Positions 2,274 to 60,803 of a stretch of DNA of 64,000 nucleotides are shown one piece after another. The notes under the pieces were generated by a model. The model did no database searches. It saw only the letters and a list, made by a program, of their open reading frames with translations, and was not told where the DNA came from. The DNA is from an uncultured bacterium (GTDB lineage: Bacteria; Oederibacteriota; PGYV01; CAWJRG01): contig CAWJRG010000010.1 in the NCBI GenBank assembly GCA_963845185.1, positions 389,297 to 453,296 on the forward strand, read 5' to 3'. The position numbers and the translations under genes are program-made. Every line of letters starts with the position of its first letter. Position 1 is the first letter of the stretch.

Positions 2274-3254
2274 TTAATAAGTACGGGCAAAACGGAATCC
2301 GTAATCTAACATCGCATAATACGGGTTTTCAATGCCGCGGTTGCCCACCGGCATTACAGCCGCGCTATTGTCAAAACAGCCACCCCTTGCCACCCGGATG
2401 TCTGTAAGTGCGGCTCCTCTATAATCAGTGGATGTGCCGGGATAATTTCCAAAACAGTCCCAGCACCATTCATAAACATTTCCTGACATATCATAAATGC
2501 CAAGCGCGTTCGGTTTTTTGCTGCCTACGTCATGCGTAGCAGACCCTGAATCCTCGCTGCACCATCCTACAAGCTCCGTTGCCGTTAAATCGGTATAATC
2601 ATCAGTCGCGCCGCTGGCATAATCATACGGCGTCCAGCTTGACCCGTCTATGTAGCTTGCCGCACACTGATATTCGCCTTCTGTAGGCAGCCTGTATCCG
2701 TTCGCGCTCCAATTCACAAACGGGTTATCATAACTCCCTGCTGTTGTATTTATGCTGGCTCCATATGCCCCGTCTGTAGAATCCTCGATGGGCGTGGTAA
2801 AACCAGCTTCAGAATAATACACAGGCGTCAGCCCTGTTTTCAGACTGTACGCGTTGCACCAGACTATAGTATCCCGCCAGTTCACCATTATTACAGGCTG
2901 AAATTTTGCTGCTGTCGGCGCTGCTCCGTCTGTCCCGCTGCTGCCCTCCCTGCCTGCATTTTGAAAAGTAAAACCGTTGTTGATGGCCCATTGATAAACC
3001 GTGTACCACAACTCATATGTCACCTGGTACTTACCGATTTTAAAAGCAGAAATTGTATGGGTGAAGCCGTTTGTCCCGTCAGTTTGGTAAAATGTGCCGC
3101 CTGGAACCGATACAAGCGCTGAAGAATCAATCGTAGGTACAGGAGTCGCAGCCGGGGTTGTAGGCGATGAATTCTTTTTACTGCTGCAGCCTGTTATAAT
3201 ACTGAATAAAACAACAAATGCAATTAAAACAAAAAACAATACTGATTTTTTCAT
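2274..3254 (-). CDS. Surface lipoprotein with C-terminal FGE-sulfatase (SUMF1/formylglycine-generating-enzyme-like) domain.
   Basis: True start MKKSVLFFVLIAFVVLFSIITGCSSKK at 3254 (cat at 3252-3254, GGAGG RBS). Motifs GYRLPTEGEYQCAAS, GIYDMSGNVYEWCWD and RVARGGCFDN are typical of the SUMF1 family. Confidence 0.7.
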   Translation of the reverse strand: MKKSVLFFVLIAFVVLFSIITGCSSKKNSSPTTPAATPVPTIDSSALVSVPGGTFYQTDGTNGFTHTISAFKIGKYQVTYELWYTVYQWAINNGFTFQNAGREGSSGTDGAAPTAAKFQPVIMVNWRDTIVWCNAYSLKTGLTPVYYSEAGFTTPIEDSTDGAYGASINTTAGSYDNPFVNWSANGYRLPTEGEYQCAASYIDGSSWTPYDYASGATDDYTDLTATELVGWCSEDSGSATHDVGSKKPNALGIYDMSGNVYEWCWDCFGNYPGTSTDYRGAALTDIRVARGGCFDNSAAVMPVGNRGIENPYYAMLDYGFRFARTY

Positions 3255-3336
3255 CTGAAGCCTCCAGTTTTTACATTCGGTATTTGGTATTTTGGATTCA
3301 AATTCATGAATGCTGAATGCCAAATTGTTTTAAAAC

Positions 3337-4569
3337 CTACTGCGCCCACCACACGTCATTATAATAAACAGCGCCATTATCCCAGCCGGCTATTACCCAC
3401 ATAACATTGTTGTAAACAACACTTGTATGATAGGTTCTTACGGCAAATCCTGCCGCTGACGTTGCTTCTATCCATGTTATTCCGTCGCTTGAGTTCCATA
3501 TATCGTTCAAGAAACCACATGCTCCTGCCCCGCCTATCACCCAAATTAAGTTATTATATACCACGCTCGTATGGCCGTATCTCGCGCAAAATGCCGCGCC
3601 TGTTGTTGCAGGTGCCCAGTTTTTGCCGTCGGTTGAGCTCCAAACATCATTGTACCAGGCGCTGCCGTCTACACCGCCTATTACCCACATTTCATTTTTG
3701 AATACAACGCCGGAAAGATTCTGCCTGGCGTTGAAAGAAGCCGCTGTTGTGGTGCATCCCCAGTTTTTACCATCGCTTGAATACCACGCGTCATTTAAAA
3801 AACTGCTCCCATAACCGCCTATCACCCACATTTCATTGTTGAACACAACGCTGGTATGGTATGTCCTTGGTGTAAATGCGCCTGCGGTCGTGGTGCATCC
3901 CCAATTCACGCCGTTGCTGGAATACCAGACATCGCTGTGTACGCCGCTCCATGCACCGCCTATTACCCACATTAAATTATTGTATACCACACTTGTATGT
4001 CCGTACCTTACGCTGAATGCAGCGGATGCATTTGCTTCGTACCATGTAGTACCATTGCTGGAATACCATATGTCGTTGTAGTATTTACTGGCATCCATTC
4101 CGCCTATAACCCACATTTCATTGTTATATACCACGCTGGTATGGTTGCCCCTTGCGTTGAATCCTGGCGCCGCTGTCGATAACGCCCACATGCTGCCGGA
4201 TACAGGAGTGTATGTAATCGTAGCTGTTACTGTAACCGTGGGTGATATTGCCGGAGTAGAGGAAATAGTAAAAGTTGGCGTCCTTATCGTAGCTGTTGCT
4301 GTAATCGTGGGCGATATTGCCGGAGTAGAGGAAATAGTAAAAGTTGGCGTCCTTGTGGATGTCTTGGACCAATTCGGAGTGCCTGTAAACATTGCAGCCG
4401 TGGCTGTCTGGTGCAGTACAGCGTTTGTTGCGCTGGCAGCTGCAGTTTGTGTCATATTAGGCGTGTCTGTCGCCTGCGGTGCAACAGGGTTGCTTTTCTT
4501 CTTTGAGCAGGAATTGGAAAGGATTGCCAATAATAGAATTGCAATTGCGATTATCACGAGCTTTTTCAT
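3337..4569 (-). CDS. Surface lipoprotein, family member: conserved signal-peptide cassette, Thr/Pro/Ser-rich linker with 2x 23-aa tandem repeat, and a six-blade Kelch-type beta-propeller.
   Basis: Start MKKLVIIAIAILLLAILSNSCSKKK at 4569 (GGGAGG RBS). Repeated MWVIGG...WYSSDG..W blades. 69-nt tandem repeat at about 4238-4353. Confidence 0.75.
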   Translation of the reverse strand: MKKLVIIAIAILLLAILSNSCSKKKSNPVAPQATDTPNMTQTAAASATNAVLHQTATAAMFTGTPNWSKTSTRTPTFTISSTPAISPTITATATIRTPTFTISSTPAISPTVTVTATITYTPVSGSMWALSTAAPGFNARGNHTSVVYNNEMWVIGGMDASKYYNDIWYSSNGTTWYEANASAAFSVRYGHTSVVYNNLMWVIGGAWSGVHSDVWYSSNGVNWGCTTTAGAFTPRTYHTSVVFNNEMWVIGGYGSSFLNDAWYSSDGKNWGCTTTAASFNARQNLSGVVFKNEMWVIGGVDGSAWYNDVWSSTDGKNWAPATTGAAFCARYGHTSVVYNNLIWVIGGAGACGFLNDIWNSSDGITWIEATSAAGFAVRTYHTSVVYNNVMWVIAGWDNGAVYYNDVWWAQ

Positions 4570-4629
4570 GATTAATGCCTCCCTTTTTAATATTTTCATA
4601 TATTTTATCATTTATCCTGCTTCTGTCAA

Positions 4630-4658
4630 ACAAAAAAGCCCGGAGGTCATCCGGGCCT
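4630..4658 (-). terminator. Rho-independent terminator (GCCCGGA...TCCGGGC plus U-run). Representative of about 10 near-identical terminators after family genes.
   Basis: Similar aaaaaagcccgg...ccgggc hairpins at about 6238, 8872, 10522, 12292, 13937, 16330, 18902, 20395 and 21598. Confidence 0.6.
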
Positions 4659-4718
4659 TTTATAATTCCTTAATCAACTATCCACTTTCACCTGCTCAAC
4701 TTTCCCGCGCATCGCGCG

Positions 4719-6176
4719 CTACTGGCTCCACCACGAATCTGTCGGAAAAACATCGTAACTGCCCCATCCGTTCACTATCCACATTGCGTTGTTAAACACA
4801 ACGCAGCTTGCGCCTGCCCTCGCGCTGAAAGCAGCGCCGGAAGTCGCCTGCGTCCAGTTAAACCCGTTGTCCGAGTACCATACGTCATTGGTGCTGTTGT
4901 TCCCGGCTATTGCCAGCGTCTGGCCGGCAATGACCCATATCTTATTGTTATATACCACGCATGCGGCCAGAAACCTAGGCGTAAAGCCGGCGTTCCCCGT
5001 AGCGCCTGCCCAGTTTGCTCCGTCCGTGGACCACCAGACGTCGTTATAGAATATATTTTCTATGTTGTTGTATCCGCCGGTCAGCCACATGGACCCGTTA
5101 AATGCCACGCATGAAGGCCCTGCCCTTTTAATGAAAGGGGCCTCCGCTGTTGCCTCCTGCCAGTTTGCTCCGTCAGATGAATACCAGACGTCGTTAAAAT
5201 AGCCAACGCTGTCGCCTCCTGCTATCAACCACATTTTATTGTCATATACCACGCTGGCATGATAGCCCCTTAAGCCAAACGCCGCAGATGCGGTTGCCTC
5301 CTGCCAGTTTGCGCCGTCGTTTGAATACCATACGTCATTACAATAGCCTCCATAAATATTGCCTCCAATTACCCACATTTCGTTATTGAATACTACGCTG
5401 GAATGATAGGCTCTGCCGCTAAACCCGGCGCCTGCCGTTGCCTGCGTCCAGTTTGCGCCGTTGTTCGAATACCAGACATCGTTGTATAAATAGCGTGTTC
5501 CGGAAAGATAATATACCCCTCCTATGAGCCACATATTATTATTGTAAACCAGGCTCGTATATTCTCCCCTTCCGCTTATTCCTGTAGTGCCGGTTGCTTG
5601 CGTCCATACGCTGCCGGGCACAGGAGTAATAGTCGGGGTGTATGTCGGGGTTGAAGTGCTTGTCCACAAAGCAGCCGCGGCTGTCTGCTGTTGCGCAACT
5701 ATTGTCGCTATTGCCGCAGCAGTCTGTGTCGCATTTGGCGTTTGGGTATCTGTATATTCCGGCGTGACAGTAAACGTGCTCGTCGGGCTGTATCCTGCCG
5801 CTGCCGCTGTCTGCTGTGCCGCTATGCTCGTGGCTATCGCAGCTGATGTCTGCGTGGCATTTGGCGTAAGAGTATCAGTAAACGTGCTTGTCGGGCTAAA
5901 GCCCGCGGCTGCGGCTGTCTGCTGGGCAGCTATGATAGTTTCTATAGCCGCTATTGTCTGGCTTGCATTTGGAGTTGCCGTTATTGTCGGCGTGTTCGTA
6001 GGCGAGTAAAGTTTAATCGCCATTGTCTGCGTGGCGTTCGCGTTTGCCGTCGCCGCCAGTATCGCGCCAACTGTGCCCTGCACGTCCGGCGTGGATGGAG
6101 TTTTTGTTTTTGAGCAGGAATTGGAAAGGATTATGAATGATAAAATTGCGATTGCGGTTATCAAGGTTTTTTTCAT
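4719..6176 (-). CDS. Surface lipoprotein, family member: TQA-rich repeat linker plus Kelch-type beta-propeller.
   Basis: Start MKKTLITAIAILSFIILSNSCSKTKTPSTPDVQGTVGAI at 6176. Linker repeats NATQTAAAIATIVAQQQTAAAAGY. Blades MW(V/L)IGG...VWYS.DGANW. TAG stop at 4719-4721. Confidence 0.75.
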   Translation of the reverse strand: MKKTLITAIAILSFIILSNSCSKTKTPSTPDVQGTVGAILAATANANATQTMAIKLYSPTNTPTITATPNASQTIAAIETIIAAQQTAAAAGFSPTSTFTDTLTPNATQTSAAIATSIAAQQTAAAAGYSPTSTFTVTPEYTDTQTPNATQTAAAIATIVAQQQTAAAALWTSTSTPTYTPTITPVPGSVWTQATGTTGISGRGEYTSLVYNNNMWLIGGVYYLSGTRYLYNDVWYSNNGANWTQATAGAGFSGRAYHSSVVFNNEMWVIGGNIYGGYCNDVWYSNDGANWQEATASAAFGLRGYHASVVYDNKMWLIAGGDSVGYFNDVWYSSDGANWQEATAEAPFIKRAGPSCVAFNGSMWLTGGYNNIENIFYNDVWWSTDGANWAGATGNAGFTPRFLAACVVYNNKIWVIAGQTLAIAGNNSTNDVWYSDNGFNWTQATSGAAFSARAGASCVVFNNAMWIVNGWGSYDVFPTDSWWSQ

Positions 6177-6316
6177 GATTAATGCCTCCAGTTTGATATT
6201 TTTATATATTTTATCATTTACCCCGCTTCTGTCAAACAAAAAAGCCCGGAGTTTCGCCTCGGGCCTGTATTCTTTAATTGAGCTTTGAACTTTGAACCTT
6301 GAGCTTGGCAGTCAAC

Positions 6317-6883
6317 TTACGGGTGGAATTTTTCGACTCTGTAATTCCCGCTGTCCACTACATACACGTTCCCGCTGCTGTCTACTGCTACTCCATAAGG
6401 ACTGTTAAACTGGCCATTGCCGGTCCCGTAACTGCCCCATTGCGAAATATACACGCCTGTATTGCTGAATTTTTCTATCCTGTTGTTGCCTTGATCTACA
6501 ACAAACACATTTCCATTGCTGTCCACTGCTATCCCCTTTGGCCCGTTAAACTGCCCGTTGCCGCTTCCCTGAGTGCCCCACACGGTTACAAACATCGCGG
6601 TCATGGTAGCTGTTGCGTTTGCGTTGGCTACCATGGTGCATATTGCCTGGGCCGTCTGTGTAGCGTTCGGCTAGGCAGTTGACGTTGCCGTGACTGTCGG
6701 CGTGTGCGCGGCCACGGTCTGCGTCTCCTGCGCCGCCATCTGCGTGTCCACCGCCTCCACCGTCGCCTGCACGTTCTGCGTGGGCTGGGGCGTCGGTGCC
6801 GCAGGGTTGCTTGTCTTGCTGCAGCCTGCCAATGCCAAAATAACCGCCAAAACCACAGCCATGCACATTAATATTTTTTTCAT
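6317..6883 (-). pseudogene. Lipoprotein with NHL repeats, interrupted by an in-frame TAG at 6671-6673. The same lesion is present in the copy at 16519..16941.
   Basis: ORFs 6671..6895 (MKKILMCMAVVLAVILALAGCSK...) and 6317..6634 (NHL motifs NNRIEKF and YRVEKF) are in the same frame and separated only by one TAG. GGAGA RBS before ATG at 6883. Confidence 0.6.
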
Positions 6884-6956
6884 TATGTTCTCCATTTATT
6901 TTTAGCTTTGGCTGAATGCCGAATGCCAAATTCCGAATCCAAAATGTTATTTAAGC

Positions 6957-8810
6957 CTATGGTTTAAATTTTTGGATTATGCCACGATATCGATCCGACA
7001 CATAAACATCCCCGTTGTTGTCTGTTGCCATATAAGCGGGGTTGAGAAAATATCCATTCCCGGATCCTCCATAACCGCCCCATGAAGTTATAAACCCTCC
7101 GGATGACGTATATTCCTCGATTCTAACCGGCCCATTTCCCACTCCGTTATTATTCAGCACATACACAGTTCCGCTGCTATCTACAGTTATTCCATAATCC
7201 GACACGTTTTCAAAACCATCGCCCCATGAAGTTATAAACCCCCCCGATGATGTAAATTTCTGGATTCTTTCATTATTAGAATCCGCGACATACACATCAC
7301 CTGCGCTGTCTATAGCTATCCCAACTGGCCACGAAAACTGTCCGTTATCGGTTCCGGCGCTTCCCCATGATGTTATGAATGTTCCGGATGATGTGAATTC
7401 CTCTATCCTGTTATTACCCATATCCGTGGCATATACGTTACCGCTACTCATATTTACAGCTATTCCAATATAATAATCGAATCCATTTCCCCAGACAGTA
7501 TCAGAAGGCCAAAAATTCCCGTCTCCGAATCCTTGACCTCCCCATGCAGTTATGTATTGACCTGCGGTTGTAAATTTCACTATTAACCCAGTGTCGATAT
7601 TCCCGACGTATACATTACCGGCGTTGTCCAGAGCTAAGCCGGTGGACATTCCCATGCTCGGCCAACTGTTTATAGCTGCTCCCGATGAAGTGAATTCCTG
7701 TATTGTGCCATTTTGCGAGGCAGCAAACACATTTCCGCCGTTGTCAACTGCCAGTCCCTGCGCGCTGTCGAAACTCCATTGTGTCTGGAACATCGCCGTC
7801 ATTGTCGCTGTTTGCTGCACCGCGGCAGTGGCTGCCGCCGCCGCTGCCGTCTGCTGTGCTGCGGCTGTCGCTATCTGCTGCGCCGCGGCAGTTGCCGAAC
7901 AAATTGCCACCGCCGTTTCCGTACCCTGTATCTGCGCTGTTTGCGTGGCATATACCTGTGCCGTTGATGTTGCCTGCACCTGCGCTATTTCTGTCGCGAG
8001 CGCTTGAATTGCCTGCGCTGTTGCAGTAGCTATTGCATTAGCGTCAGGGGTTGGAGTATTTGTGATAGTCGGCGTATTAGTCGCAGTGCTTGTGCTTGTC
8101 CAACCCGCCGCCGCTGCTGTCTGCTGCTGCGCCACTATCGTAGCTATTGCTGCTGCTGTCTCTGTGGCGTTCGGTGTGAGCGTGTATGTGTCAGTCGGCA
8201 CCGTAGTATAGGTATTCGTAGCGCTGTAGCCTGCCGCTACTGCCGTCTGCTGCTGCGCTATCATTGTCAGTATGGCCGCCGCTGTCTGCGTCGCGTTTGG
8301 CGTCATTGTATTTGTAAAAGTGCTTGTTGCTGTATATCCTGCCGCTGCCGCTGTCTGCTGCTGCGCAACTGCCGTAAAAATCGCTGCCATTGTCTGAGTC
8401 GCATTCGGCGTAAGAGTATCAGTAAACGTGCTTGTAGGGCTGTATCCCGCGGCAGCCGCTGTCTCTTGCTGCGCTATTATAGTAAGTATAGCTGCCTGCG
8501 TAAGCGCCACATTCGGCGTGCTGGTGGCAGTATACCCTGCCGAAATAGCTGTCTGTTGCTGGGCAATCATGGTAAGTACTGCCGCTTCTGTCTGGGCAAT
8601 GTTCGGTGTCGCGCTGATTGTCGGAGTTGATGTTGGCGAATACAATTTTATGATTTCAGTCTGAGTGGCGTTTGCGTTTGCCGCTGCTGTCAGCGCCGCG
8701 TTCACCGTGGCTGCCACGTCCGGCGTAGACGGGGTTTTTGTTTTCGAGCAGGAATTGGAAAGGATTGTGAGTAGTAAGATTGTGACTGCGATTATCCCAA
8801 ACTTTTTCAT
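6957..8810 (-). CDS. Surface lipoprotein, family member: long TQA-rich repeat linker plus C-terminal NHL-repeat beta-propeller.
   Basis: Start MKKFGIIAVTILLLTILSNSCSKTKTPSTPDV at 8810 (cat at 8808-8810). About six ATQTAAAILTMIAQQQTA.AAGYTAT linker units. NHL motifs NNRIEEFTSSG and NERIQKFTSSG. Confidence 0.75.
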   Translation of the reverse strand: MKKFGIIAVTILLLTILSNSCSKTKTPSTPDVAATVNAALTAAANANATQTEIIKLYSPTSTPTISATPNIAQTEAAVLTMIAQQQTAISAGYTATSTPNVALTQAAILTIIAQQETAAAAGYSPTSTFTDTLTPNATQTMAAIFTAVAQQQTAAAAGYTATSTFTNTMTPNATQTAAAILTMIAQQQTAVAAGYSATNTYTTVPTDTYTLTPNATETAAAIATIVAQQQTAAAAGWTSTSTATNTPTITNTPTPDANAIATATAQAIQALATEIAQVQATSTAQVYATQTAQIQGTETAVAICSATAAAQQIATAAAQQTAAAAAATAAVQQTATMTAMFQTQWSFDSAQGLAVDNGGNVFAASQNGTIQEFTSSGAAINSWPSMGMSTGLALDNAGNVYVGNIDTGLIVKFTTAGQYITAWGGQGFGDGNFWPSDTVWGNGFDYYIGIAVNMSSGNVYATDMGNNRIEEFTSSGTFITSWGSAGTDNGQFSWPVGIAIDSAGDVYVADSNNERIQKFTSSGGFITSWGDGFENVSDYGITVDSSGTVYVLNNNGVGNGPVRIEEYTSSGGFITSWGGYGGSGNGYFLNPAYMATDNNGDVYVSDRYRGIIQKFKP

Positions 8811-8839
8811 GATTAATGCCTCCCTTTTAATATTTTCAT

Positions 8840-8870
8840 ATATTTTATCATTTATCCCGTTTCTGTCAAA
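8840..8870 (-). promoter_or_regulatory. Representative copy of the conserved family promoter (TTGACAG-16/17-TAAAAT) plus 5'UTR cassette. The RBS GGGAGG lies separately at 8817-8822.
   Basis: Near-identical copies lie upstream of the starts at 4569, 6176, 8810, 12229, 13877 and 18838. -35 tgtcaa at 8864-8869; -10 atttta at 8842-8847 (minus). Confidence 0.55.
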
Positions 8871-8993
8871 CAAAAAAGCCCGGAGCTTTCGCCCGGGCCC
8901 GTTGCTGTTTTTATTTGGATTTTGAATCAAAAATTCCTAGTTATCAATCGCCAATTTTCAATGAAAAACAATTCAGAAAAACAGGTTCAGCTA

Positions 8994-10292
8994 TTATTGG
9001 ACAGAAATCGAAAATGCCATTGTGCTGTGTGTGCCGTCGCCGACAAGGTCGGTCCTGGTTGCCCCTGTCCAAAAGCATCCGGTATATAACACTGCGGAAC
9101 TTGAAACATAATATCCGGCTATATAGGGCGTGCCTCCTGAGACAAATATCGAAGTTGCCTGACTTCCATATTGGCCCGCGCCTGCGCCTACAGTCAGGTG
9201 GTACTTTACATTTCCTGCCCAGTAACACGGGGTATAAGGCATTATGTCATATCCTGCGGCATATACCGAGCCATCCTGTGTGACATATATTGATTTTACC
9301 CATCCTGCGGTTAAATCCATAGGAGTAAGCCATATACAATTGGCATTCATCCAGTAACACGGGGATTGCGTGCCGCCGGTGTTTAAATCACCGCCAACAT
9401 ACACTGTCCCGTTTGATACAACTACAGAAGATGCTTCAGCACCATTCGGGCTGGTTTGAGGGAGAGCGCCCAGCGCATTTCCATTCCATACGCAGGGCAC
9501 GTAGTTTGTACCGTCATAATAATAACCCGCTGTATATATCGTGCCATTCGCTTCATATATCGAGTTCGCGTATCCGTTTACGCTGTTGCAGTAAAGGTCG
9601 GTTTTTACGCCTCCTGCCCAGTAGCATGGCACGTTAATGGTGCCGTTGCTGTAACCTCCGGCTGCGTATACCGTTCCATTATCGGCAAAAATCGAATTGG
9701 CGTAGCCTCCGCCGCTAAGGTCGGTCCTGATGCCGTTTGCCCAGTAGCATGCGCCGTTAACCAAGCCTCCGCCTATATACATTACACCGCCGGATATGTA
9801 TATTGAAGATGCTGACCCTGCGTTGACCCCGCCGTCAAGGTCGGTCTTTACTGTCCCTGTCCAGTAACACGGGATACTTTTTGTGCCGTTATCATAATTT
9901 CCGCACGTATATACGATGGGTGTTGCGGTCGGCGTCGCTGTAGAGGACACAATTGCCGTCAATGTCGCGCTTGGCTGAATTGCCGTAATTGTTTGTGTTA
10001 TTAAAGCTGTTATTGTCGTGGTTGCAGATGCTGTAAACGGGATTTGCAGGGTATTTGTTTCAGTGAATGTAACACCGAAATTCATTGTTGCGGTTTGCGT
10101 CTGTGTTTTTGGCACGTGCGTATTTGTTGATGTCGGAGTCGCAGCGGGAATGGACGGAGTTTTTGTCAGTGTGCTTATAATTTGTGCAGTATTAGTCGCC
10201 GCAGGCGGCGTCGGCGAAGGCATTTTTTTGCATCCAATGGCGATTATTATCCCGGTTAAAAGTATAAGTGCCGGAATCAGGATTTTTTTCAT
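8994..10292 (-). CDS. Lipoprotein (second N-terminal subfamily, MKKILIPALIL...) with C-terminal Y/CYW-containing beta-propeller-like repeats.
   Basis: Signal peptide plus AIGC lipobox. Repeats G(T)..PCYW.G..TDL ... YA(A)GYY.NGT. Consensus promoter TTGACA-17-TATAAT at 10329-10357 (minus). Confidence 0.6.
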   Translation of the reverse strand: MKKILIPALILLTGIIIAIGCKKMPSPTPPAATNTAQIISTLTKTPSIPAATPTSTNTHVPKTQTQTATMNFGVTFTETNTLQIPFTASATTTITALITQTITAIQPSATLTAIVSSTATPTATPIVYTCGNYDNGTKSIPCYWTGTVKTDLDGGVNAGSASSIYISGGVMYIGGGLVNGACYWANGIRTDLSGGGYANSIFADNGTVYAAGGYSNGTINVPCYWAGGVKTDLYCNSVNGYANSIYEANGTIYTAGYYYDGTNYVPCVWNGNALGALPQTSPNGAEASSVVVSNGTVYVGGDLNTGGTQSPCYWMNANCIWLTPMDLTAGWVKSIYVTQDGSVYAAGYDIMPYTPCYWAGNVKYHLTVGAGAGQYGSQATSIFVSGGTPYIAGYYVSSSAVLYTGCFWTGATRTDLVGDGTHSTMAFSISVQ

Positions 10293-10409
10293 GATTTAAC
10301 CTCCCTTTATTTATTTCGTTCTATAGCAATTATACCCCCTTAAAACCGCCCTGTCAAGCAGGGTAAATCCCGCCAATTTTAAAGAGTACGGGGGGTATTA
10401 TCATTCGTT

Positions 10410-10494
10410 GTAGAGACGTTTTGCAAAACGTCTCTACGTTTAATCATAAATCCTCTTTTATTTAAAGTAGAGACACGCCATGGCGTGTCTCTAC
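10410..10494. repeat. Two 28-bp perfect palindromes with shared arms: GTAGAGAC-GTTTTGCAAAAC-GTCTCTAC (10410-10437) and GTAGAGACACGCC-ATGGCGTGTCTCTAC (10467-10494).
   Basis: Read directly from the sequence. They lie between the terminator of 10604..12229 and the promoter of 8994..10292. Confidence 0.6.
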
Positions 10495-10603
10495 TTATAT
10501 CCCATCCATATAAACAAAAAAGCCCGGAGTTTGACCCGGGCCTTTTATAATTCCTTAATCAACTATCCACTTTCATCTGTTCAACTTTCCCGCGCATCGC
10601 GCG

Positions 10604-12229: not shown

Positions 12230-12344
12230 GATTAATGCCTCCCTTTTAATATTTTCATATATTTTATCATTTATCCCGTTTCTGTCAAACAAAAAAGCCC
12301 GGAACTTCCGTCCGGGCTTAGATAATATTTATAATTTGCTGTTA

Positions 12345-13877
12345 TTATTGGCGTGTAACAACACGTATGCCGTTGCCAACTATAGATGAGTCGGCCGGGA
12401 AGTCGTCCCAACGGAAGCCAACCTGGAGGTTGGACGCGTCATAGTGATAGTTACCACCCCTCATTATACGGTTAGAGCCGCTCGTTGCGCCTTTATAATC
12501 AATTTCACCAGCGGCAGGATAAGCCGCATACCAATCCCAGCACCACTCGTATAAATTGCCCGACATATCATAGATGCCCAGGGCATTTGGCGCTTTAGTG
12601 CCCACAGGCTGTGTTCCGCCGCTTGCATTAAAAAGAAACCACGCTACAAGCGCAGTTGCTGTCGTGTCAGAATAAACGTCTGTTGCGCCGCTTGCATAGT
12701 TGGGCGGAGTGCCTGTATAACTTGCCGCGTACTGGTACTCGCCTTCTGTAGGCAGCCTGTAACCGTTCGCGGCCCAGTTCACATACGGATTATCAAAACA
12801 TCCGGCGGCAGTACAGGTAGTAGTGCTATAGCTCCCGCTTACAGATGATGTAATTGGCTGGGCAAATGCCGAGTCATAATAGTAAACAGGCGTTAAACCC
12901 TTATATTGGCTATATGCGTTACACCACACTATGGCATCCCTCCAGTTTATCTTTGTTACCGGCTGATTTACAGTAACCGGCGCTGCCCCGGGTGTCCCGC
13001 TGCCTGCCTCCTCCATGCCATAATTTTGAAATGCATAACTTGTGGCCCATATGCGCACCGTGTACCATAAATTATAGGTCAGCAGGTATTTCCCTATATT
13101 AAAAGCAGAAATTGTATGCGCAAAACTGTTTCCGCTTGTATCTTCCTGTACATATGTCCCGCCCGGAACCGAAACAAGTACTGAATAATCAATCGTAGCA
13201 GTTGGTGTTGCCGTAAAAGTAGGCGTCACTGTTGGTGTAGCCGTTATCGTCGTTGTAGCTGTCCATAAAGCCGCTGCTGCTGTCTGCTGCTGGGCCACTA
13301 TCGTCGCTATTGCCGCGGCTGTCTGCGTCTGGTCCGGCGTATTTATGTTGGTAGGTGTTGCTGTTATTGTAGGCGTTATTGTAACAGTGCATGTCGCGGT
13401 ATATCCGACTGCCGCTGCTGTTTGCTGCTGCGCAATCATTGTCAAAATCGAAGCGGCTGTCTGTGTCGCGTTCGGCGTCAACGTATTTGTAAAAGTGCTT
13501 GTCGCGGTATATCCGGCCGCTGCTGCTGTCTGTTGCTGCGCTATTATAGTAAGTACAGCTGCCTGCGTAAGCGCCACATTCGGCGTGCCGGTGGCAGTAT
13601 ACCCTGCTGAAATAGCTGTCTGCTGCTGGGCAATCATTGTGAGCACTGCCGCTTCTGTCTGGGCAATGTTCGGTGTCGCGCTGATTGTCGGAGTCGATGT
13701 CGGCGAATACAGCTTTATTATTTCTGTCTGTGTGGCGTTTGTCCCTGCTGCCGCTGTCAATGCCGCGTTTACCGTAGCTGCCACATTTGGCGTGGACGGG
13801 TTGTTTGTTTTCGAGCAGGAATTGGAAAGGATTGCGAATAATAGAATTCCGGCTGCGATTATCCCGGGCTTTTTCAT
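12345..13877 (-). CDS. Surface lipoprotein, family member: TQA linker plus FGE-sulfatase (SUMF1-like) domain. Paralog of 2274..3254.
   Basis: Start MKKPGIIAAGILLFAILSNSCSKT at 13877. Motifs GYRLPTEGEYQYAAS and GIYDMSGNLYEWCWD. The N-terminal ~450 nt are about 90% identical to 6957..8810. Confidence 0.75.
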   Translation of the reverse strand: MKKPGIIAAGILLFAILSNSCSKTNNPSTPNVAATVNAALTAAAGTNATQTEIIKLYSPTSTPTISATPNIAQTEAAVLTMIAQQQTAISAGYTATGTPNVALTQAAVLTIIAQQQTAAAAGYTATSTFTNTLTPNATQTAASILTMIAQQQTAAAVGYTATCTVTITPTITATPTNINTPDQTQTAAAIATIVAQQQTAAAALWTATTTITATPTVTPTFTATPTATIDYSVLVSVPGGTYVQEDTSGNSFAHTISAFNIGKYLLTYNLWYTVRIWATSYAFQNYGMEEAGSGTPGAAPVTVNQPVTKINWRDAIVWCNAYSQYKGLTPVYYYDSAFAQPITSSVSGSYSTTTCTAAGCFDNPYVNWAANGYRLPTEGEYQYAASYTGTPPNYASGATDVYSDTTATALVAWFLFNASGGTQPVGTKAPNALGIYDMSGNLYEWCWDWYAAYPAAGEIDYKGATSGSNRIMRGGNYHYDASNLQVGFRWDDFPADSSIVGNGIRVVTRQ

Positions 13878-14096
13878 GATTAATGCCTCCCTTTAAATAA
13901 TTTTCATATATTTTATCATTTACTCCGCCCCTGTCAAACAAAAAAAGCCCGGAGCTTTCGCCCCGGGGCTGTTGTTTTTAATATTATTCCATTTGGCATT
14001 TCTTTAATATTTCCTTCCGAACATCTTTAAGAACTATGTTTGAACTCTTTTTGAACTCCTTGCGGACATCCTCAAAGAACTCTTTCCGGGCGTTAT

Positions 14097-15332
14097 TTAG
14101 GTTTGATGCTGTTTTTCCAGTATTTTTTCCGTATTCATAAAAAATTCTTCTGCTTCAAGACATTTCGTATCTGATTTATCATGTTTTTTCATGAAAGACA
14201 CAACAACTTTTTCCGTGTTTTTATACCTGTTCGAAAAAATATCCAGCGCAGCCGCGGCCTTGCCTGGATCCCCGGATTTTACTTCCACTGCAATGAGTCT
14301 GCCGCCTATGCTTAATACATAATCAACCTCAAAGTCTCTTTCACGCCAATAAAACAGCTCTCCGCCCTGTTCCTGGGCCAGCCAGTATAATCTGGAACCG
14401 ACAGCGTTTTCAAACAGCCTTCCCCGGTAAGCAAGGTCTTTAAACGATTGTTTAAAAGTACGGTTGTTTACGACGCTTATTATTGAATTATCAAGGGAAA
14501 GTATTTTGGGGCTTGAACTTTTCTGTTTTATCCTGCTTCCGCTGTATTTATCAAGCGGAACAAGAAAAAAAGCATTTGCCATTAATCTTAAATAAAAAGC
14601 TATTGTGGTGGTGTTACCCGCATCCTGCAGTTGCCCCAGCATTTTTTGATAACTGAGTATTTCAGCAGGGTGATTAAGGCAAAGCGCAAAAGCCTGCCTT
14701 AACAAAGCAGGTTTTGTGACCGGATTCATAAGCAGGACATCTTTTGCTATTACAGTTTCAATTATGGCGTCCTTTATATATATTGCCCATCGTCTTATAT
14801 TTTTTCTGATTTTTGCGGCCCCGGGATACCCGCCGTAATAAATATAATCATTTAGGGTAAATTTAAAAAATTCTTTGCACTCCTCATAAGACCAGTGGCT
14901 GTGCCTGTTTATTTCAAATCTTCCGGCAAGGCTTTCTGTCAATCCGCGCTGCATTAACAAAGATGACGAGCCTAAAATTACTATTCTTACGCGTGCCTGT
15001 TCTCTTTCATTCTTATCGTAAACATATTTTAGAGTATTGCTCCACCCGGGTATTTTCTGTATTTCATCTATTATTAACAACGTCTCGCGCTTAATCCGTT
15101 TCGCGGCATCGGCGGCAGTGTTATTTAATTCAATTATCCAGTTTCTGCTCTCCGCGCCGGGCGCGTCTGCGGTCGCGTAAAAACTCGGCCCCTTCCAACT
15201 GTCTTTAATCTGCAATACGAGCGTAGTTTTGCCCGTCTGCCTAGGCCCAATTAAAGCCTGTATAAACCGCGGCCCCCGGTTTAATTTTCCATTTATCTCT
15301 TTGTACTGTTTTTTCCGCAAATATATTTTCAT
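14097..15332 (-). CDS. AAA+ ATPase of the AAA_14 + DUF4143 family.
   Basis: Walker A GPRQTGKTT near the N-terminus, ~410 aa, typical architecture of the DUF4143 ATPase family. Confidence 0.7.
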   Translation of the reverse strand: MKIYLRKKQYKEINGKLNRGPRFIQALIGPRQTGKTTLVLQIKDSWKGPSFYATADAPGAESRNWIIELNNTAADAAKRIKRETLLIIDEIQKIPGWSNTLKYVYDKNEREQARVRIVILGSSSLLMQRGLTESLAGRFEINRHSHWSYEECKEFFKFTLNDYIYYGGYPGAAKIRKNIRRWAIYIKDAIIETVIAKDVLLMNPVTKPALLRQAFALCLNHPAEILSYQKMLGQLQDAGNTTTIAFYLRLMANAFFLVPLDKYSGSRIKQKSSSPKILSLDNSIISVVNNRTFKQSFKDLAYRGRLFENAVGSRLYWLAQEQGGELFYWRERDFEVDYVLSIGGRLIAVEVKSGDPGKAAAALDIFSNRYKNTEKVVVSFMKKHDKSDTKCLEAEEFFMNTEKILEKQHQT

Positions 15333-15399
15333 TGTGTTTTATTCTATCACGCGCTAAAAACCTTGTCAACAATTTGCTCAGTCAATTGAGCAAATTGCA

Positions 15400-16325
15400 G
15401 TTCAATATTATACGCAAATAGTACTATCCCTGACTATTCCCCGGGTTATTCGACGGATAAAAGTCATCGTGATACTCCAAAATATGTTTTTTTCAAAAGG
15501 CAAAGAGGAGTGCTCAACTATTATAAATCTCCCTGCGGCAGAGACCGCAGGGTATTCTAAAGGCATTGATGATTTGAGTAACCTACGGTTTCTCAAACTC
15601 TTCCCTTACAAGGAAACCCCGTGGCAAGACCGACGGGGAATATGTTTATTTAATCTGTCCAGACTGTAATCGAGTAGGAGTCTGGCGATTAGTTCACCAG
15701 CCGTCCTCTCACACCACCCTGCATGCGGTTCCGCACAGGGCGGTTCCTGAAAATTATAAACAATTTATGCAGCTAACGGTTTATCCTTCAACCATCCGTT
15801 TCCTGACATCTTTTGTTCCGGGTTACTTAACTCTGCGTTTAGTCCTGGCTCGATTGACACACTCGTTAACATCCATGGCTGATTCCGTCAGCCTCCTATG
15901 TGCAGAGCGGAGGGTTTCTATCCTCTCTTGCTGCGTCTCCTCGTCCTGTAGGTTTCAAAGTTTCTTTTTCTCCCTGTTTTCAAGTTCTGCCCTTCGTTTG
16001 TGGCCTCAAACTACTATGGCTTCTGCTGACTCCTCGAATTTTCCTTCGAGGTCTCCCCAGATATCACACTCCCGCTTTCACGCTTATGCCTGCCGCATCT
16101 ACGTCCGTACCTCCCGTGCAAGTACTGGACTTTAGAGACATTGGCCTCCTCATCCGATACGTCCGCCTTATATGCGGTTTCTGTTCGTCAGGCCAGCGCT
16201 TTGCCTTTGGCTTCCTGCGGATTCCACCTCACGGTGGACACCCTTGCCATTAAGCTAACGATTCCCCTTGCCGGGTTCGTGAGGAACTTTCATCCCTTAT
16301 CGGATGTGCGCTGCTGGGCGTACCA
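15400..16325 (-). ncRNA. Non-coding region whose minus strand shows ordered, highly divergent similarity to the 5' domain (about the first 700 nt) of bacterial 23S rRNA. Either an rRNA relic or a structured ncRNA.
   Basis: No credible ORF. Motifs in the right order on the minus strand: ccaccgtgaggtggaatcc (cf. ACGGTGGATGCC), gcataagcgtgaaagcgggagtgtgatat (cf. GCGATAAGCGTCGGTAAGGTGATAT), gaacttgaaaacagggagaaaaagaaac (cf. GAACTGAAACATCTAAGTA..GAGGAAAAGAAA), gccaggactaaac (cf. CCAAGGCTAAATAC), agtctggacagatta (cf. GGGTCAGCGACTTA). Identity is far below normal 23S conservation. Confidence 0.35.
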
Positions 16326-16518
16326 AACAAAAAGCCCGGACTTTCGCCCGGGCCTTTTGCTTTATATTATTCTATTCTGTATTCTGCATTCAGCAAACCA
16401 TCCAACCCTCCGGCCTTCCATTCCTCCGCCTTTATTGCCCCGGGCTTATTACTTTTGCTTTATTCTATATTATATATGGCCTTTGGAATACCGATTACCA
16501 AATTCCAAATCTAAAATA

Positions 16519-16941
16519 TTACGGTTTGAACACTTCAACTATATTATTCCCATAATCTGCGACATACACGTTCCCGCTGCTGTCTACTGCTATTCCTTCA
16601 GGTGCAGAAAACTGCCCGTTACCGGTGCAGCAGCTGCCCCAGGAAGTCACAAACATCGCGGTCATGGTAGCTGTTGCGTTTGCGTTGGCTACCATGGTGC
16701 ATATTGCCTGGGCCGTCTGTGTAGCGTTCGGCTAGGCAGTTGACGTTGCCGTGACTGTCGGCGTGTGCGCGGCCACGGTCTGCGTCTCCTGCGCCGCCAT
16801 CTGCGTGTCCACCGTCGCCTGCACGTTCTGCGTGGGCTGGGGCGTCGGTGCCGCAGGGTTGCTGGACTTGGAGCACGCCGGAATAATAACCATTATTAAA
16901 ATTGTGGTGAAAGTTAAGAGCGCAAATCTGTTTTTTATCAT
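16519..16941 (-). pseudogene. Short lipoprotein plus single NHL repeat paralog, carrying the identical in-frame TAG (16731-16733) as 6317..6883.
   Basis: About 180 nt identical to 6600-6790 except a 9-nt indel. N-terminus MIKNRFALLTFTTILIMVIIPACSK. C-terminal part MVANANATATMTAMFVTSWGS...NNIVEVFKP. Confidence 0.55.
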
Positions 16942-16990
16942 TTCAACTCCTCCTATTTATTTCGCCGTATATTTTAAAAACAGCGAAATT

Positions 16991-18838
16991 CTATTGGCTG
17001 AACACCTCTACATACGGGTCGGCATCCGGATCAACAACATACACTTTGCCGCTGTTGCCAACGGCAATGGCCCACGGATACGCAAACTGCACCGAACTGC
17101 CCCACATTGTTATAAAATCCAGGTTTGACGTAAATTTCTGCACATCTAAACCTTGAAGATCAACGACATACACATTTCCGCTATTGTCCACTGTTACTCC
17201 CTGGGGATTCTCAAACTGCCCTGGCCCGTTCCCATAAGTTCCCCCAATCCCTTGTACAAATACTCCCATTGACGTGAATTTCCATAGCCCTTCGAGATTA
17301 ACTACATATACATAATTTCCGCTGTTGTCTATGGCTATTCCTGCTGGGAAAGTAGAACTTGTCCAAAGAGGATAACTCCACGACTTTATTAACTCTCCCG
17401 TTGGCGAATATTCCATGACATTATAGCCGGCAAAGACATAGATGTTGCCACTGTTGTCTACTGCTATTGTTTTATTGTCAGTAATACCAGCCAGTGTTTT
17501 TATGCATTCACCTGTTGATGTGAATTCAAATACTCCGCCATTATCAATTAAATAAACATTACCGCTGTTGTCCACCGTTATTCCATCAGGTGGCATATAA
17601 AAATTCCAGCCGCAGGCGCTGCCGTCCCATGCAATTATAAATTGACCGGCTGACGTAAACTCCTCTATTCTCTTATTGCCTGAGTCCGAGACATACACAT
17701 TCCCGTTGTTTTTGTTTACGGCCACGCCACCGGGAACGTAAAGCTGCCCGTCTCCGGAACCGGGGCTGCCCCATGCCGACATGTTCATTGCGGTCATTGT
17801 TGCCGTTTCCTGCGCATTCACCTGCGCTGTTGCCGTTGCCTGCGCATTTGCCTGTGCTGTGGCTGTTTCCTGTGCCTGCGCCTGCGCCGTTTCCGCTGCC
17901 TGTTCCGTCGCAGTTTCTGCCGGTGGCAGCGCTGCCGCTGTCTGCGTCGCCTGCGCCTGCGCTGTTGCTGTGCCAACCACCTGCGCTGTTAACTCTGCCT
18001 GCGCTGCGGCTGTCGCCTGCGCCTGTGCCGTTGCTGTGCCAACCACCTGCGCCGTTAACTCTGCCTGAGCCTGCGTTGTGGCCGTTGCCTGCACCTGCAT
18101 TATGGCAGTTAAAGTTGCCTGCGCCTGCGCCGTTGCGCCTGCCGTCAGCAGTATTACAGCTGTCTGTGTAGCCGGCGCCTCTGCCGTCTGCTGTGCCTGC
18201 GCGGTTGCTGTTTCCTGCGTCTGAATTGCCGCTGCTGTCTGCTGCTGCGCCACTATCGTGGCTATTGCCGCCGCTGTCTGCGTCGCGTTTGGCGTAAGAG
18301 TATATGTATCAGCCAGCACAGCGGTATAAGTACTTGTTGCGCTGTACCCTGCCGCCGCCGCTGTCTGCTGCTGCGCAACTATTGTCGCGATCGCGGCTGC
18401 TGTCTGCGTGGCATTCGGCGTGAGCGTGAAAGTAAATGTAGGCGTCGCGGTATATCCTGCCGCGCCTGCCGTCTGCTGCTGGGCTACAAGCGTCAAAATT
18501 GCCGCTGCTGTCTGCGTAGCGTTCAGCGTCGGGGTAAGCGTAAATGTTACTGTAACGGTATATCCTGCCGCGCCCGCTGTCTGCTGCTGGGCTACAAGCG
18601 TCAAAATTGCCGCTGCTGTCTGCGTAGCGTTCGGAGTATCCGTGATTGTCGGCGTATTTGTCGGTGAATACAGCTTTATTATCATTGTCTGAGTGGCGTT
18701 TGCGTTTGCCTGCGTGGTCATTATTGCGCCGACCGTGCCCTGCACATCGGGCGTGGACGGTGTTTTTGTTTTCGAGCAGGAATTGGAAAGGATTGCGAAT
18801 AATAGAATTCCGACTGCGATTATACCGAACTTTTTCAT
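16991..18838 (-). CDS. Surface lipoprotein, family member: TQA and Ala/Gln/Thr-rich linker plus NHL-type beta-propeller.
   Basis: Start MKKFGIIAVGILLFAILSNSCSKTKTPSTPDVQGTVGAI at 18838. NKRIEEFTSAG motif. Long AQAQATATAQ low-complexity stretch. Confidence 0.7.
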   Translation of the reverse strand: MKKFGIIAVGILLFAILSNSCSKTKTPSTPDVQGTVGAIMTTQANANATQTMIIKLYSPTNTPTITDTPNATQTAAAILTLVAQQQTAGAAGYTVTVTFTLTPTLNATQTAAAILTLVAQQQTAGAAGYTATPTFTFTLTPNATQTAAAIATIVAQQQTAAAAGYSATSTYTAVLADTYTLTPNATQTAAAIATIVAQQQTAAAIQTQETATAQAQQTAEAPATQTAVILLTAGATAQAQATLTAIMQVQATATTQAQAELTAQVVGTATAQAQATAAAQAELTAQVVGTATAQAQATQTAAALPPAETATEQAAETAQAQAQETATAQANAQATATAQVNAQETATMTAMNMSAWGSPGSGDGQLYVPGGVAVNKNNGNVYVSDSGNKRIEEFTSAGQFIIAWDGSACGWNFYMPPDGITVDNSGNVYLIDNGGVFEFTSTGECIKTLAGITDNKTIAVDNSGNIYVFAGYNVMEYSPTGELIKSWSYPLWTSSTFPAGIAIDNSGNYVYVVNLEGLWKFTSMGVFVQGIGGTYGNGPGQFENPQGVTVDNSGNVYVVDLQGLDVQKFTSNLDFITMWGSSVQFAYPWAIAVGNSGKVYVVDPDADPYVEVFSQ

Positions 18839-19006
18839 GATTAATTCCTCCCTTTTAATGTTTTCTATATTTTATCACTTATCCCGCTTCTGTCAAACAA
18901 AAAAGCCCGGAGTCTATGCCCCGGGCCTGTTGTTTTTGCATTTATCTATTCTGTATTCGGCATTCAGCATTCAAGCATTCGAATCCAGAATCCCAAATCT
19001 TAAAGA

Positions 19007-20179
19007 TTACGGATGGAATTTTTCGATTCTATTATTTATAGTGTCTGCAACATACACGTTTCCGCTGCTGTCTATTGCTATTCCAGTAGGCTCACTAAAC
19101 TGCCCGTTGCTTGTTCCATAACTTCCCCATTGCGTGATATACGTGCCCGTGCTGGTGAATTCCTGGATTCTATAATTGTTTACGTCCGTTACATATACGT
19201 TTCCGCTGCTGTCTATTGCTATCCACCCGGCGCCATTAAACGACCCATTGCCGCTTCCGGGAGTTGTTGCAGAACTGCCCCATTGTGATATATATGCGCC
19301 TGTGCTGGTGAATTCTTCGATTCTGTTATTATAATAATCTGCAACATATACATCTCCGCTGCTGTTTATTGCTATTCCGACAGGCTCATCAAACTGCCCG
19401 TTGGTTATTCCGGGACTGCCCCATTGTGTGATATATGCGCCCGTACTGCTGAATTCTTCGATTCTGTTGCCATTTGTGTCTGAAATATACACGTTTCCGT
19501 TGCTGTCTGTTGCTATTCCCTGGGGATGATTAAACTGCCCGTTGCCCGTTCCTAAACTACCCCATTGTGTGATATATGCGCCTGTACTGCTGAATTCTTC
19601 GATTCTGCTGTTTCCATAGTCTGCAACATACACATTCCCGCTGCTGCCTACTGCTATTCCAGCAGGACCTCTACTGCCAGCAATAGCCCCAAACTGCCCA
19701 ATGCCGTTTCCAAAACTGCCCCATTGAGTTATATATGTGCCTGCACTGTTAAATTTCTGGATCCTGTAATTTAAAGTATCTGCAACATATACATCTCCGC
19801 TGCTATCTACCGCCACTCCATAAGGATAATAAAACTGCCCGTTGCCGCTTCCCTGGCTGCTCCATGTGGTTACAAACATTACGGTCATTGTCGCTGTCTG
19901 CTGCGCTGAAGTTCCGGCTGTCTGCAGCGCAATAGCTGTTTGTGTCGCATTTGCCTGCGCCGTGGTTGTCTGCTGTGCCTGTGCCGTGGCTGTTTCCTGC
20001 GCCGATAGCCCGGCTGTCTGCAAATAAACTGCCGTGGCTGTTGCCGCCGCAGCCTGCGCTGTGGCTGTCATGTTGGGTGTGTTTGTTGCTGCAGGACGGG
20101 TAGGGGTAGGCAATTTTTTGCAATTGAATATAATTATGAATACAAATAGAATTAATGCCGGGATTAAGATTTTTTTCAT
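19007..20179 (-). CDS. Lipoprotein (MKKILIPALIL subfamily) with six NHL repeats.
   Basis: Repeats YRIQKF, SRIEEF, NRIEEF, NRIEKFHP with GNGQF. TTGACA-17-TATAAT promoter at 20326-20354 (minus). Confidence 0.75.
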   Translation of the reverse strand: MKKILIPALILFVFIIIFNCKKLPTPTRPAATNTPNMTATAQAAAATATAVYLQTAGLSAQETATAQAQQTTTAQANATQTAIALQTAGTSAQQTATMTVMFVTTWSSQGSGNGQFYYPYGVAVDSSGDVYVADTLNYRIQKFNSAGTYITQWGSFGNGIGQFGAIAGSRGPAGIAVGSSGNVYVADYGNSRIEEFSSTGAYITQWGSLGTGNGQFNHPQGIATDSNGNVYISDTNGNRIEEFSSTGAYITQWGSPGITNGQFDEPVGIAINSSGDVYVADYYNNRIEEFTSTGAYISQWGSSATTPGSGNGSFNGAGWIAIDSSGNVYVTDVNNYRIQEFTSTGTYITQWGSYGTSNGQFSEPTGIAIDSSGNVYVADTINNRIEKFHP

Positions 20180-20666
20180 TTAATGCCTCCCTTGATTTCG
20201 TTTACTTTGCCAAGCCGTCAACAGGCGCAGGTAAAGTATTACGAAATCATGTACCCGCTCAAGTCCGAGCCGCAGGTCCGGACAAGCGGTAAATTATTAA
20301 TTGGTAATTGTTATAATTATACCCCCTTAAAAACGCCCTGTCAAGCAGGGTAAATTTGCCCAATTTAAATGAAATATAATCTGCCAGCGCAAAAAAGCCC
20401 GGAGCTTTGCCCCGGGCTTGTATCTATTACACGCGCTTAAAAAGTCTTTTCGTTATCTTTCCGCCAATCCGACGAAAATCCCTGCCAAAATTTCCCAGAT
20501 AAAGTTATTTGCTGCTGCGATAAATTAATTTTATATAGTAATTTTTGTCATTAATAAACAGCGCGGAAGATGTCTTGAATATGCCCTTGACAAAGATATG
20601 AAGTTGACTATATTATTGCTATAATTTTATATGTTATAATAGAATCACCAGTAAAAAGGAGGGTTT

Positions 20667-28038: not shown

Positions 28039-28111
28039 AAATTAACCTCCGGATAAAACAGCTAGGGGCAATACGCGAATTGCCCCTACTGCACTCTTTG
28101 TCCCTGGTTAT

Positions 28112-28300: not shown

Positions 28301-28315
28301 TTTCGCACCTCCCTT

Positions 28316-29591: not shown

Positions 29592-29603
29592 TTTAACGAT
29601 TCC

Positions 29604-29870: not shown

Positions 29871-29884
29871 AAATTCTCTTCGAT

Positions 29885-30103: not shown

Positions 30104-30122
30104 TTGCGGTTTGTATCACCTA

Positions 30123-31115: not shown

Positions 31116-31143
31116 GTATTTTCTTTTCCTTTTCCTTTAAAAT

Positions 31144-45858: not shown

Positions 45859-45862
45859 ATTT

Positions 45863-60771: not shown

Positions 60772-60803
60772 TATATTAGTCCATGGGGATAATATCGGGC
60801 ATA

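Follow-up and report, generated by a model that had tools for sequence, protein, structure and literature searches.

Some bacterial lipoprotein genes share almost the same 5' end but continue into unrelated C-terminal domains. Does such a tandem array form a switching system for the cell surface, or does another process keep the 5' ends alike? The question is raised by a stretch of 64,000 nucleotides (nt) from an uncultured bacterium (assembly GCA_963845185.1, contig CAWJRG010000010.1, positions 389,297 to 453,296), referred to here as the window. Nine full-length predicted lipoprotein genes and two short ones lie on its minus strand between 2274 and 20440, and a preliminary description of this array had likened it to variable surface-protein systems. 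We consider it likely that the array is instead a set of tandem paralogs whose 5' module is homogenised by gene conversion among presumably co-expressed copies, and that it is not a programmed switch.

The type-1 module and the proteins behind it

The array runs in one orientation throughout, with every gene on the minus strand, and is broken twice, by an AAA-ATPase gene (14097-15332) that is unrelated to it and by the RNA of a group II intron (15669-16238). The module was defined by aligning, for each gene, the region upstream of the start codon plus the initial 160 coding nt. It is carried by exactly six genes, here called type-1 genes, with starts at 4569, 6176, 8810, 12229, 13877 and 18838. 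The preliminary description was correct in placing a near-identical 5' module before consecutive minus-strand genes, but its figure of "at least eight" genes is too high, as the carriers number six. These are the Kelch genes K4569 (3337-4569, minus strand, as are all array features below) and K6176 (4719-6176), the NHL genes N8810 (6957-8810) and N18838 (16991-18838), the RCC1 gene R12229 (10604-12229) and the FGE-sulfatase gene F13877 (12345-13877), the sequence of which equals cluster representative P0005.

Each module copy has the same order of parts: the 3' arm of a G+C hairpin (CTCCGGGC), six T residues, a G, a TTGACA-16-TAAAAT promoter, a leader, the ribosome-binding site (RBS) GGGAGG and the ATG. 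All of these, followed by the 23-codon signal peptide, are present in copy 1 (4501-4660), which has its promoter at 4629-4602. Copies 2 (6108-6266) and 6 (18770-18928) were located by module alignment, diagnostic strings and promoter scan, and copy 4 (12161-12319) by promoter scan and by its identity with copy 3 (8742-8900). In copy 5 (13809-13967) the run of six T residues is replaced by one of seven. A promoter scan found TG preceding TAAAAT at all six copies (TGnTAAAAT), which makes each an extended -10 promoter. The leader, estimated at ~25-30 nt, is A/U-rich and terminates in GGGAGGCATTAATC. The string ATCCTTTCCAATTCCTG was counted six times against 0.01 expected by chance, and CCGGGCTTTTTTGTTTGACAG likewise six times against 0.01 expected, with five exact occurrences and one, in the copy at 13877, bearing 3 mismatches that arise from the extra T. 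Terminator-like hairpins adjoin all six promoters and consist of short G+C stems followed by T-runs, as is typical of intrinsic terminators. High identity among the copies starts within the hairpin loop, while the 5' arm and loop vary; in the 75 nt that precede the ATG the six copies are 85-99% identical. The terminator, promoter, RBS and signal peptide that the preliminary description had joined into one module were recovered in this form at all six copies (TTGACA-16-TAAAAT, GGGAGG, MKK..ILSNSC).

In the six module genes the 23-codon signal peptide ends in ILSNSC and belongs to a shared N-terminus, MKK..ILSNSC|SKTKTPSTPDV, whose first 32 amino acids (aa) are on average 76% identical among the six. 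The signal peptides have a positively charged n-region, a hydrophobic h-region and an invariant Cys21, in a lipobox that reads L-S-N-S-C with Asn at -2. In five of the six genes the Cys is followed by a head and a stalk; K4569 has a divergent Thr/Pro-rich linker between its module signal peptide and its propeller. Heads are of two types and can be written KTKTPSTPDV-(QGTVGAI or AATVNAA)...ANANATQT..IKLYSPT. In the stalk a 36-aa unit, TPNATQTAAAIATIVAQQQTAAAAGY-T.T.TFT, made up of a short Ala/Gln-rich helix and a Thr/Pro-rich spacer, is repeated two to five times with a DNA period of 108 nt. There are three such repeats in K6176, four in N18838 and five in N8810, the two NHL proteins also having an Ala/Gln-rich region before the propeller. 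F13877 combines an N8810-like head with an R12229-like distal stalk. As protein the stalk units are near-identical, whereas their nucleotide identity is only 73-85%; it is thus the protein sequence of the stalk that is conserved, beyond any homogenisation of its DNA. As its repeats are Thr/Pro-rich and each begins with N-A-T, glycosylation of the stalk is conceivable.

The C-terminal domains named in the preliminary description were borne out by Pfam, which recognised Kelch in genes 4569, 6176 and 55065, NHL in 8810, 18838 and 20179, RCC1 in 12229, and FGE-sulfatase in 13877 and 3254. The stalk had no Pfam match, and a profile of head and stalk gave 13 matches only among 1.84 billion protein cluster representatives. 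The array therefore defines a rare lipoprotein head and stalk module undescribed in Pfam. An AlphaFold model of the stalk (pLDDT 42) contains isolated helices at the Ala/Gln-rich segments with unstructured Thr/Pro-rich spacers between them, a picture that is compatible with an extended stalk and is no proof of one.

These six genes are independent transcription units, each insulated by a predicted intrinsic terminator upstream. All follow the same regulatory plan, in which a sigma-70 extended -10 promoter is followed by a leader that is short and unstructured, by a strong Shine-Dalgarno sequence and by the signal peptide, so that expression together and at similar levels, from promoters that would be equivalent and strong, is to be expected. 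Each protein is predicted to present a lipid-anchor signal peptide, a conserved head, a flexible stalk and a distal globular domain.

Mosaic identity among the copies and its explanation

The best-matching partner of a given copy shifts along the alignment, which makes the alignment a mosaic. N8810 and R12229 are 100% identical over columns 30-120, with an exact run of 98 nt (8787-8884 = 12206-12303) that has sharp edges and exceeds the 75 nt of identity first reported for these two copies. In columns 120-150 it is F13877 and N18838 that are 100% identical, with an exact run of 48 nt (13804-13851 = 18765-18812), while R12229 resembles N18838 at 87-97% over columns 180-240 and N8810 resembles F13877 at 93-97% over columns 270-360. 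For the last pair the preliminary description had claimed almost identical sequence over about 450 nt. This was an overstatement: identity is ~85% across the initial 460 nt and rises to 95% (128/135) in a core at +193 to +327, and blastn aligned the two genes at 80.6% over 713 nt. Painting of each paralog in 60-nt windows resolved patches of 50-250 nt from differing paralogs. Parsimony-informative sites fall into clustered, mutually incompatible partitions (PHI permutation test, p=0.0016), and permutation tests of the longest concordant run in three pairs returned p<1e-4, 4e-4 and 1.7e-3. Where the amino acid is the same, the codons agree in 78% of cases within the signal peptide as against 56% within the head, and C-terminal domains of the same type share only 46-55% aa identity. 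From this mosaic pattern we infer gene conversion as the mechanism.

A further tract involves the two small NHL lipoprotein genes of the array, at 6317-6895 (downstream of N8810 and in the same transcription unit) and at 16519-16941 (downstream of N18838). Each has its own RBS and signal peptide. The two share a sharp-edged exact block of 166 nt and another exact block of 56 nt with a 9-nt indel between them, 222 identical nt within a tract at 6588-6811 that matches 16649-16863. Outside this block their signal-peptide and upstream sequences are unrelated, and their 3' parts are ~75% identical. Both contain the same in-frame TAG (...TATSTA*PNATQT...) inside the identical block, at a position through which the intact homologue P0009 reads. 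Because a nonsense codon was copied, selection cannot explain the identical block, and the two genes look like twin pseudogenes produced by gene conversion. Stop-codon reassignment was considered for the in-frame TAGs and was ruled out, since TAG terminates four array genes. The concerted evolution put forward in the preliminary description is upheld by the mosaic alignment with its changes of partner, by the PHI and runs tests (the latter all at p<=0.0017) and by the 166+56-nt block. With its mapped tracts, one of which copied a nonsense codon, the array offers a clean, testable case of gene conversion by short tracts among tandem bacterial genes.

Relatives of these genes were found in peat, soil and other metagenomes. 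Their heads and stalks are joined to NHL (P0004, P0006, P0009), FGE-sulfatase (P0003, P0007, P0012), Kelch (P0014), RCC1 (the gene at 1231 of locus L008) and CBM-like domains (P0001, P0002, P0013). As relatives have the same stalk on the same domain types, the fusions of stalk and domain are old and not products of recent switching. Locus L008, the first 11.5 kb of a 155-kb contig, is itself a tandem array in the order NHL, RCC1, CBM-like, NHL, NHL, RCC1. The type-1 promoter core CCGGGCTTTTTTGTTTGACAG-16-TAAAAT occurs there only at the stalked RCC1 gene, where it is identical but is followed by a different, longer leader, which shows selection on the promoter core and not on the leader. The other family genes of L008 have unrelated promoters and signal peptides that are only loosely alike, and a more distant relative, L009, is likewise without homogenised promoters and signal peptides. 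While the first 32 aa of the six window genes average 76% identity, they reach at most 66% to any relative; similarity that is greater within a genome than between species is the classical signature of concerted evolution.

Judged from their sequences, heads and domains have differing histories. P0003 combines an R12229-like head with a tail and FGE domain like those of F13877, and the RCC1 gene of L008 has a K6176-like N-terminus (73% aa, 79% nt), whereas identity between its RCC1 domain and the one of R12229 is only 55%. Within the window, K6176 and R12229 have a common linker upstream of the domain and 3' untranslated regions (3'UTRs) that begin at the stop codon and are 92% identical (4628-4726, including the terminator, in K6176; 10512-10611 in R12229), so that the domain segments of this pair are bracketed by homology on both sides. 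Of the cassette exchange that had been proposed, a cassette-like layout therefore stands for at least one pair, but the differences among the C-termini do not come from recent switching. Further searches, for relatives and for the window itself in the searchable contig collections, were negative: the pattern TGATAAAATATA-N14-20-GGAGGMATTAATCATGAAAAA gave 0 matches in genome_contigs and metagenome_contigs, none of 545 pattern stretches matched by the stalk alignment in genome_contigs was confirmed by tblastn, a protein search with signal peptide and head only returned 0 candidates, and exact look-ups of the window proteins R12229, ABC ATPase and F13877 in the contig index produced no record, nor did those of P0001 and P0014.

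We propose that repeated, short-tract, non-allelic gene conversion between tandem copies sustains the near-identity of the 5' module, with purifying selection on the promoter core acting alongside it. Homology of the stalk repeats on the 5' side and of the 3'UTR and terminator on the 3' side would permit the occasional exchange of heads or domains, as the incongruence between species suggests.

Could selection alone have kept the module constant among ordinary tandem paralogs, with no gene conversion? Selection on the core is real, in that CCGGGCTTTTTTGTTTGACAG-16-TAAAAT is identical in L008 though the proteins are only 50-73% identical, and the stalk repeats are clearly under protein-level selection. 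Yet positions that vary elsewhere are identical in specific pairs over long, sharp-edged runs, as in the 98 nt of N8810 and R12229, and the partner changes along the alignment. A single tree is rejected by the PHI and runs tests, the leader is nearly invariant among the six paralogs and different between species, and a 222-nt identical block with a nonsense codon is inexplicable by selection, all of which makes selection alone an improbable explanation. A different account places the fusions late: one promoter-leader-stalk segment would have spread recently in this lineage and become fused onto several pre-existing propeller and FGE genes. The window does hold domains of the family types in genes that lack the module (FGE at 2274-3254, Kelch at 54067-55065, NHL at 19007-20179), each retrieved relative locus has one stalked gene only, and the FGE domain of P0003 is nearer to that of the stalk-less gene 3254 (61%) than to that of F13877 (50%). 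In relatives, however, the stalk is already found on FGE, Kelch, NHL and RCC1 domains, so the fusions predate the window organism, and neither two head types nor stalks that differ in repeat number and at synonymous sites would be expected after one recent spread. We regard such a spread as rather unlikely; it overlaps with the proposed homogenisation by conversion, as both need recombination among paralogs.

Programmed antigenic or phase variation, in which C-terminal cassettes would be moved behind one expressed leader or whole copies toggled, is very improbable here. This reading has in its favour a conserved 5' non-coding region and signal peptide with differing mature parts, as in Mycoplasma Vsp/Vpma (PMC2268961), recombination signals among the copies, and homology on both sides of the domain segments in at least one pair. 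A complete promoter and RBS on all six copies means, on the other hand, that there is no single expression site, and all genes have a single orientation. The array holds six TTGACA-16-TAAAAT and two TTGACA-17-TATAAT promoters; a repeat search found no inverted repeats flanking them and, in the spacer of the promoters and the 5' coding sequence, no tandem repeat prone to slippage. Open reading frames (ORFs) and a domain scan of neighbouring ORFs revealed no tyrosine or serine recombinase in or beside the array. Nor does the array contain promoterless silent cassettes, every full-length module member having promoter, RBS and signal peptide. The relatives, moreover, come from peat and soil and not from a host with adaptive immunity. 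Nothing in the window suggests programmed switching, and on this point the preliminary description is not supported.

Several observations weigh against the interpretation by gene conversion or against parts of it. Conversion was deduced from one assembly only; if this is a short-read one, exact repeats of 98-166 nt could yield chimeric joins that mimic a mosaic, and the stalk with its 108-nt period is also difficult for short-read assemblers. The mosaic would then be an artefact of metagenome assembly, made by chimeric joins or by consensus collapse across repeats or co-existing strains, and the apparent nonsense- and frameshift-type disruptions at 6317-6895, 16519-16941 and 57247-62396 fit such an origin. 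This is quite improbable, given that the six copies lie each within unique flanks with long ORFs intact, that many short patches have intermediate identity (80-97%), unlike the outcome of collapse, and that relatives assembled independently have this architecture and this head/domain incongruence too. As for the proteins, the usual lipobox consensus is [LVI][ASTVI][GAS]C (PROSITE PS51257), outside which the Asn at -2 of L-S-N-S-C falls, and the array products are predicted lipoproteins from their sequences alone. The low-confidence AlphaFold model of the stalk is a weak hint of isolated helices.

The array might serve as a natural display platform, in which gene conversion keeps the homogenised promoter-leader-stalk interchangeable and binding or enzymatic domains are re-assorted between copies at the population level. 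We think this unlikely as matters stand. Were it true, it would imply that the cell surface varies from strain to strain in a free-living lineage of peat or soil, for example under pressure from phages or predators, and the 36-aa repeat of Ala/Gln-helix and Thr/Pro spacer would be a new, possibly glycosylated, stalk domain.

Genes and elements around the module copies

Three full-length array genes are without the type-1 module. Genes 10292 (8994-10292) and 20179 (19007-20179) have a second module, CCCTGCTTGACAGGGCG...GGGGGTATAAT, with the signal peptide start MKKILIPALIL, and the two copies of the type-2 promoter, CCCTGCTTGACAGGGCG-TTTTAAGGGGGTATAAT, are a perfect consensus (TTGACA-17-TATAAT). 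The promoter of gene 10292, which encodes a ~40-aa-repeat protein with no Pfam match, lies at 10357-10329. Gene 20179 encodes an NHL lipoprotein with the signal peptide MKKILIPALILF, and its upstream region (20180-20440) contains a structured leader of ~110 nt, the promoter at 20344-20316 and a family-type hairpin at ~20390-20420. About 100 nt of this leader (20183-20290) are conserved before an unrelated secreted-protein gene in a relative (L007:2410-2518). A two-hairpin consensus preserves 9/29 pairs through changes on both sides, in what are two examples only, and the leader had no significant Rfam match; we regard it as a candidate new cis-regulatory RNA. The third gene, 3254 (2274-3254), encodes an FGE-sulfatase lipoprotein (PF03781, E=6.5e-33) with its own signal peptide and without a stalk. 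The 82-nt gap that separates it from K4569 holds an RBS and no promoter or terminator, and it is probably the second gene of an operon begun by that Kelch gene.

The preliminary description had also counted members at 54067 and 57247-62396, where a Kelch gene (54067-55065) and NHL genes lie. Inspection of their upstream regions and the diagnostic strings failed to find the type-1 module at either, and their relation to the array is by domain only. The region at 57247-62396 (minus strand) is a very large NHL-repeat gene, seemingly split into ORFs at 57247-60771, 61112-61852 and 61827-62396. It includes a 1174-aa ORF with 13 NHL stretches and has an ordinary signal peptide, not the lipoprotein module. 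The three-way split reflects either a degraded gene or assembly errors. Between the Kelch gene and this large NHL gene lies an IS110-family transposase (PF01548, PF02371; 55954-57003, minus strand), the only transposase found.

A terminator of the form GCCCGG-loop-CCGGGCTTTTTTGTTT, often after AAGGAATTAT(C)AAA, is found at 10512-10560 and 4628-4690; it recurs almost base for base in relatives whose proteins are only 50-70% identical (L007:2275-2310 and, in L008, ahead of the genes at 1231, 4625 and 6097). Degenerate, GGA-rich short repeats of GAATGC/GGATTY type lie just 3' of stop codons at ~3260-3330, 6905-6950, 16380-16500 and 18930-19000, and similar intergenic repeats are present in relatives (L007:640-700 and the upstream regions of L008). 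The group II intron RNA at 15669-16238 (minus strand) is ORF-less and was detected with Rfam models RF02001 (139 bits), RF01998 and RF00029. It lies directly downstream of a family-type terminator hairpin (16327-16375), at the place where a type-1 promoter follows the equivalent hairpin in the six modules. Bacterial class C introns insert after intrinsic terminators, and it is these that we take the intron to resemble.

Farther from the array, a glycosylation-type cluster at 37132-47335 includes two PMT_2-family membrane proteins, found by domain scan, and proteins that by eye resemble GT2 enzymes, O-antigen ligases and flippases in their translations. A glycosyltransferase gene is duplicated there at 89% identity (39430-40572 and 42404-43542). 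An island of low GC content at 28000-34100 (0.27-0.33 vs ~0.45-0.50 elsewhere) encodes a 977-aa protein with an NPPY methyltransferase motif and looks like a horizontally acquired restriction-modification-like element.

Comparison with known systems

An integron gene-cassette array was ruled out for this locus, which has no integrase or attC and has a promoter on every gene. Among variable lipoprotein systems, the Vsp, Vpma and Vsa loci of Mycoplasma consist of clustered lipoprotein genes that share a highly conserved 5'UTR and signal peptide, while their mature regions are repetitive and the coding sequences otherwise unrelated; Vsp/Vpma loci rely on one promoter only, have a Xer-like recombinase beside them and recombination sites within the 5'UTR, and switch via DNA inversion (PMC2268961). 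The window resembles them in the conservation of 5'UTR and signal peptide across clustered lipoprotein genes, and differs in having a promoter for each copy and one orientation, with no recombinase or inverted sites found. In VlsE, Vmp and Msp2, segments are transferred non-reciprocally between homologous copies with conserved ends (PMC4534519). Segmental transfer between homologous copies is common to those systems and to the window, but they rely on a single expression site and on numerous silent cassettes or pseudogenes that have no promoter; here there is no such site and no silent array, and the tracts of the window chiefly homogenise the 5' module where theirs diversify the exposed region.

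By analogy of organisation, the closest counterpart of the array is the Erp family of Borrelia burgdorferi (OspE/F-related, with an "upstream homology box"), which comprises paralogous lipoproteins with conserved promoter/operator DNA, leader peptide and first mature residues (PMC10016077). The remainders of the Erp ORFs are of diverse origins with frequent recombination, and each gene has its own promoter and is co-expressed and unswitched (PMC10016077). The window parallels this arrangement in the conserved promoter DNA before all six copies (85-99% over 75 nt), in the conserved leader peptide and first mature residues, and in diverse ORF remainders (four unrelated Pfam domain types) for which recombination tests are positive. 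There are also clear differences. Erp genes occupy allelic positions on cp32 prophage plasmids, whereas the window holds a chromosomal-type tandem array that has no phage genes near it. Sequence homology to Erp is absent, Pfam scans of the window being without any OspE/F-type family. The window proteins have a long conserved repeat stalk between leader and variable part, which Erp proteins lack, and their variable parts belong to recognisable folds (Kelch, NHL, RCC1, FGE-sulfatase). Finally, the host of Erp is a vertebrate pathogen, and the window organism is uncultured and related to bacteria of peat and soil metagenomes.

For annotation purposes, identical 5' ends are here no evidence of a switching system. 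The array is a known kind of lipoprotein family organisation in a new instance: homogenisation of promoter and leader, best known from host-associated pathogens (Borrelia and Mycoplasma, for example), is met here in an uncultured environmental lineage with propeller and FGE-type domains.

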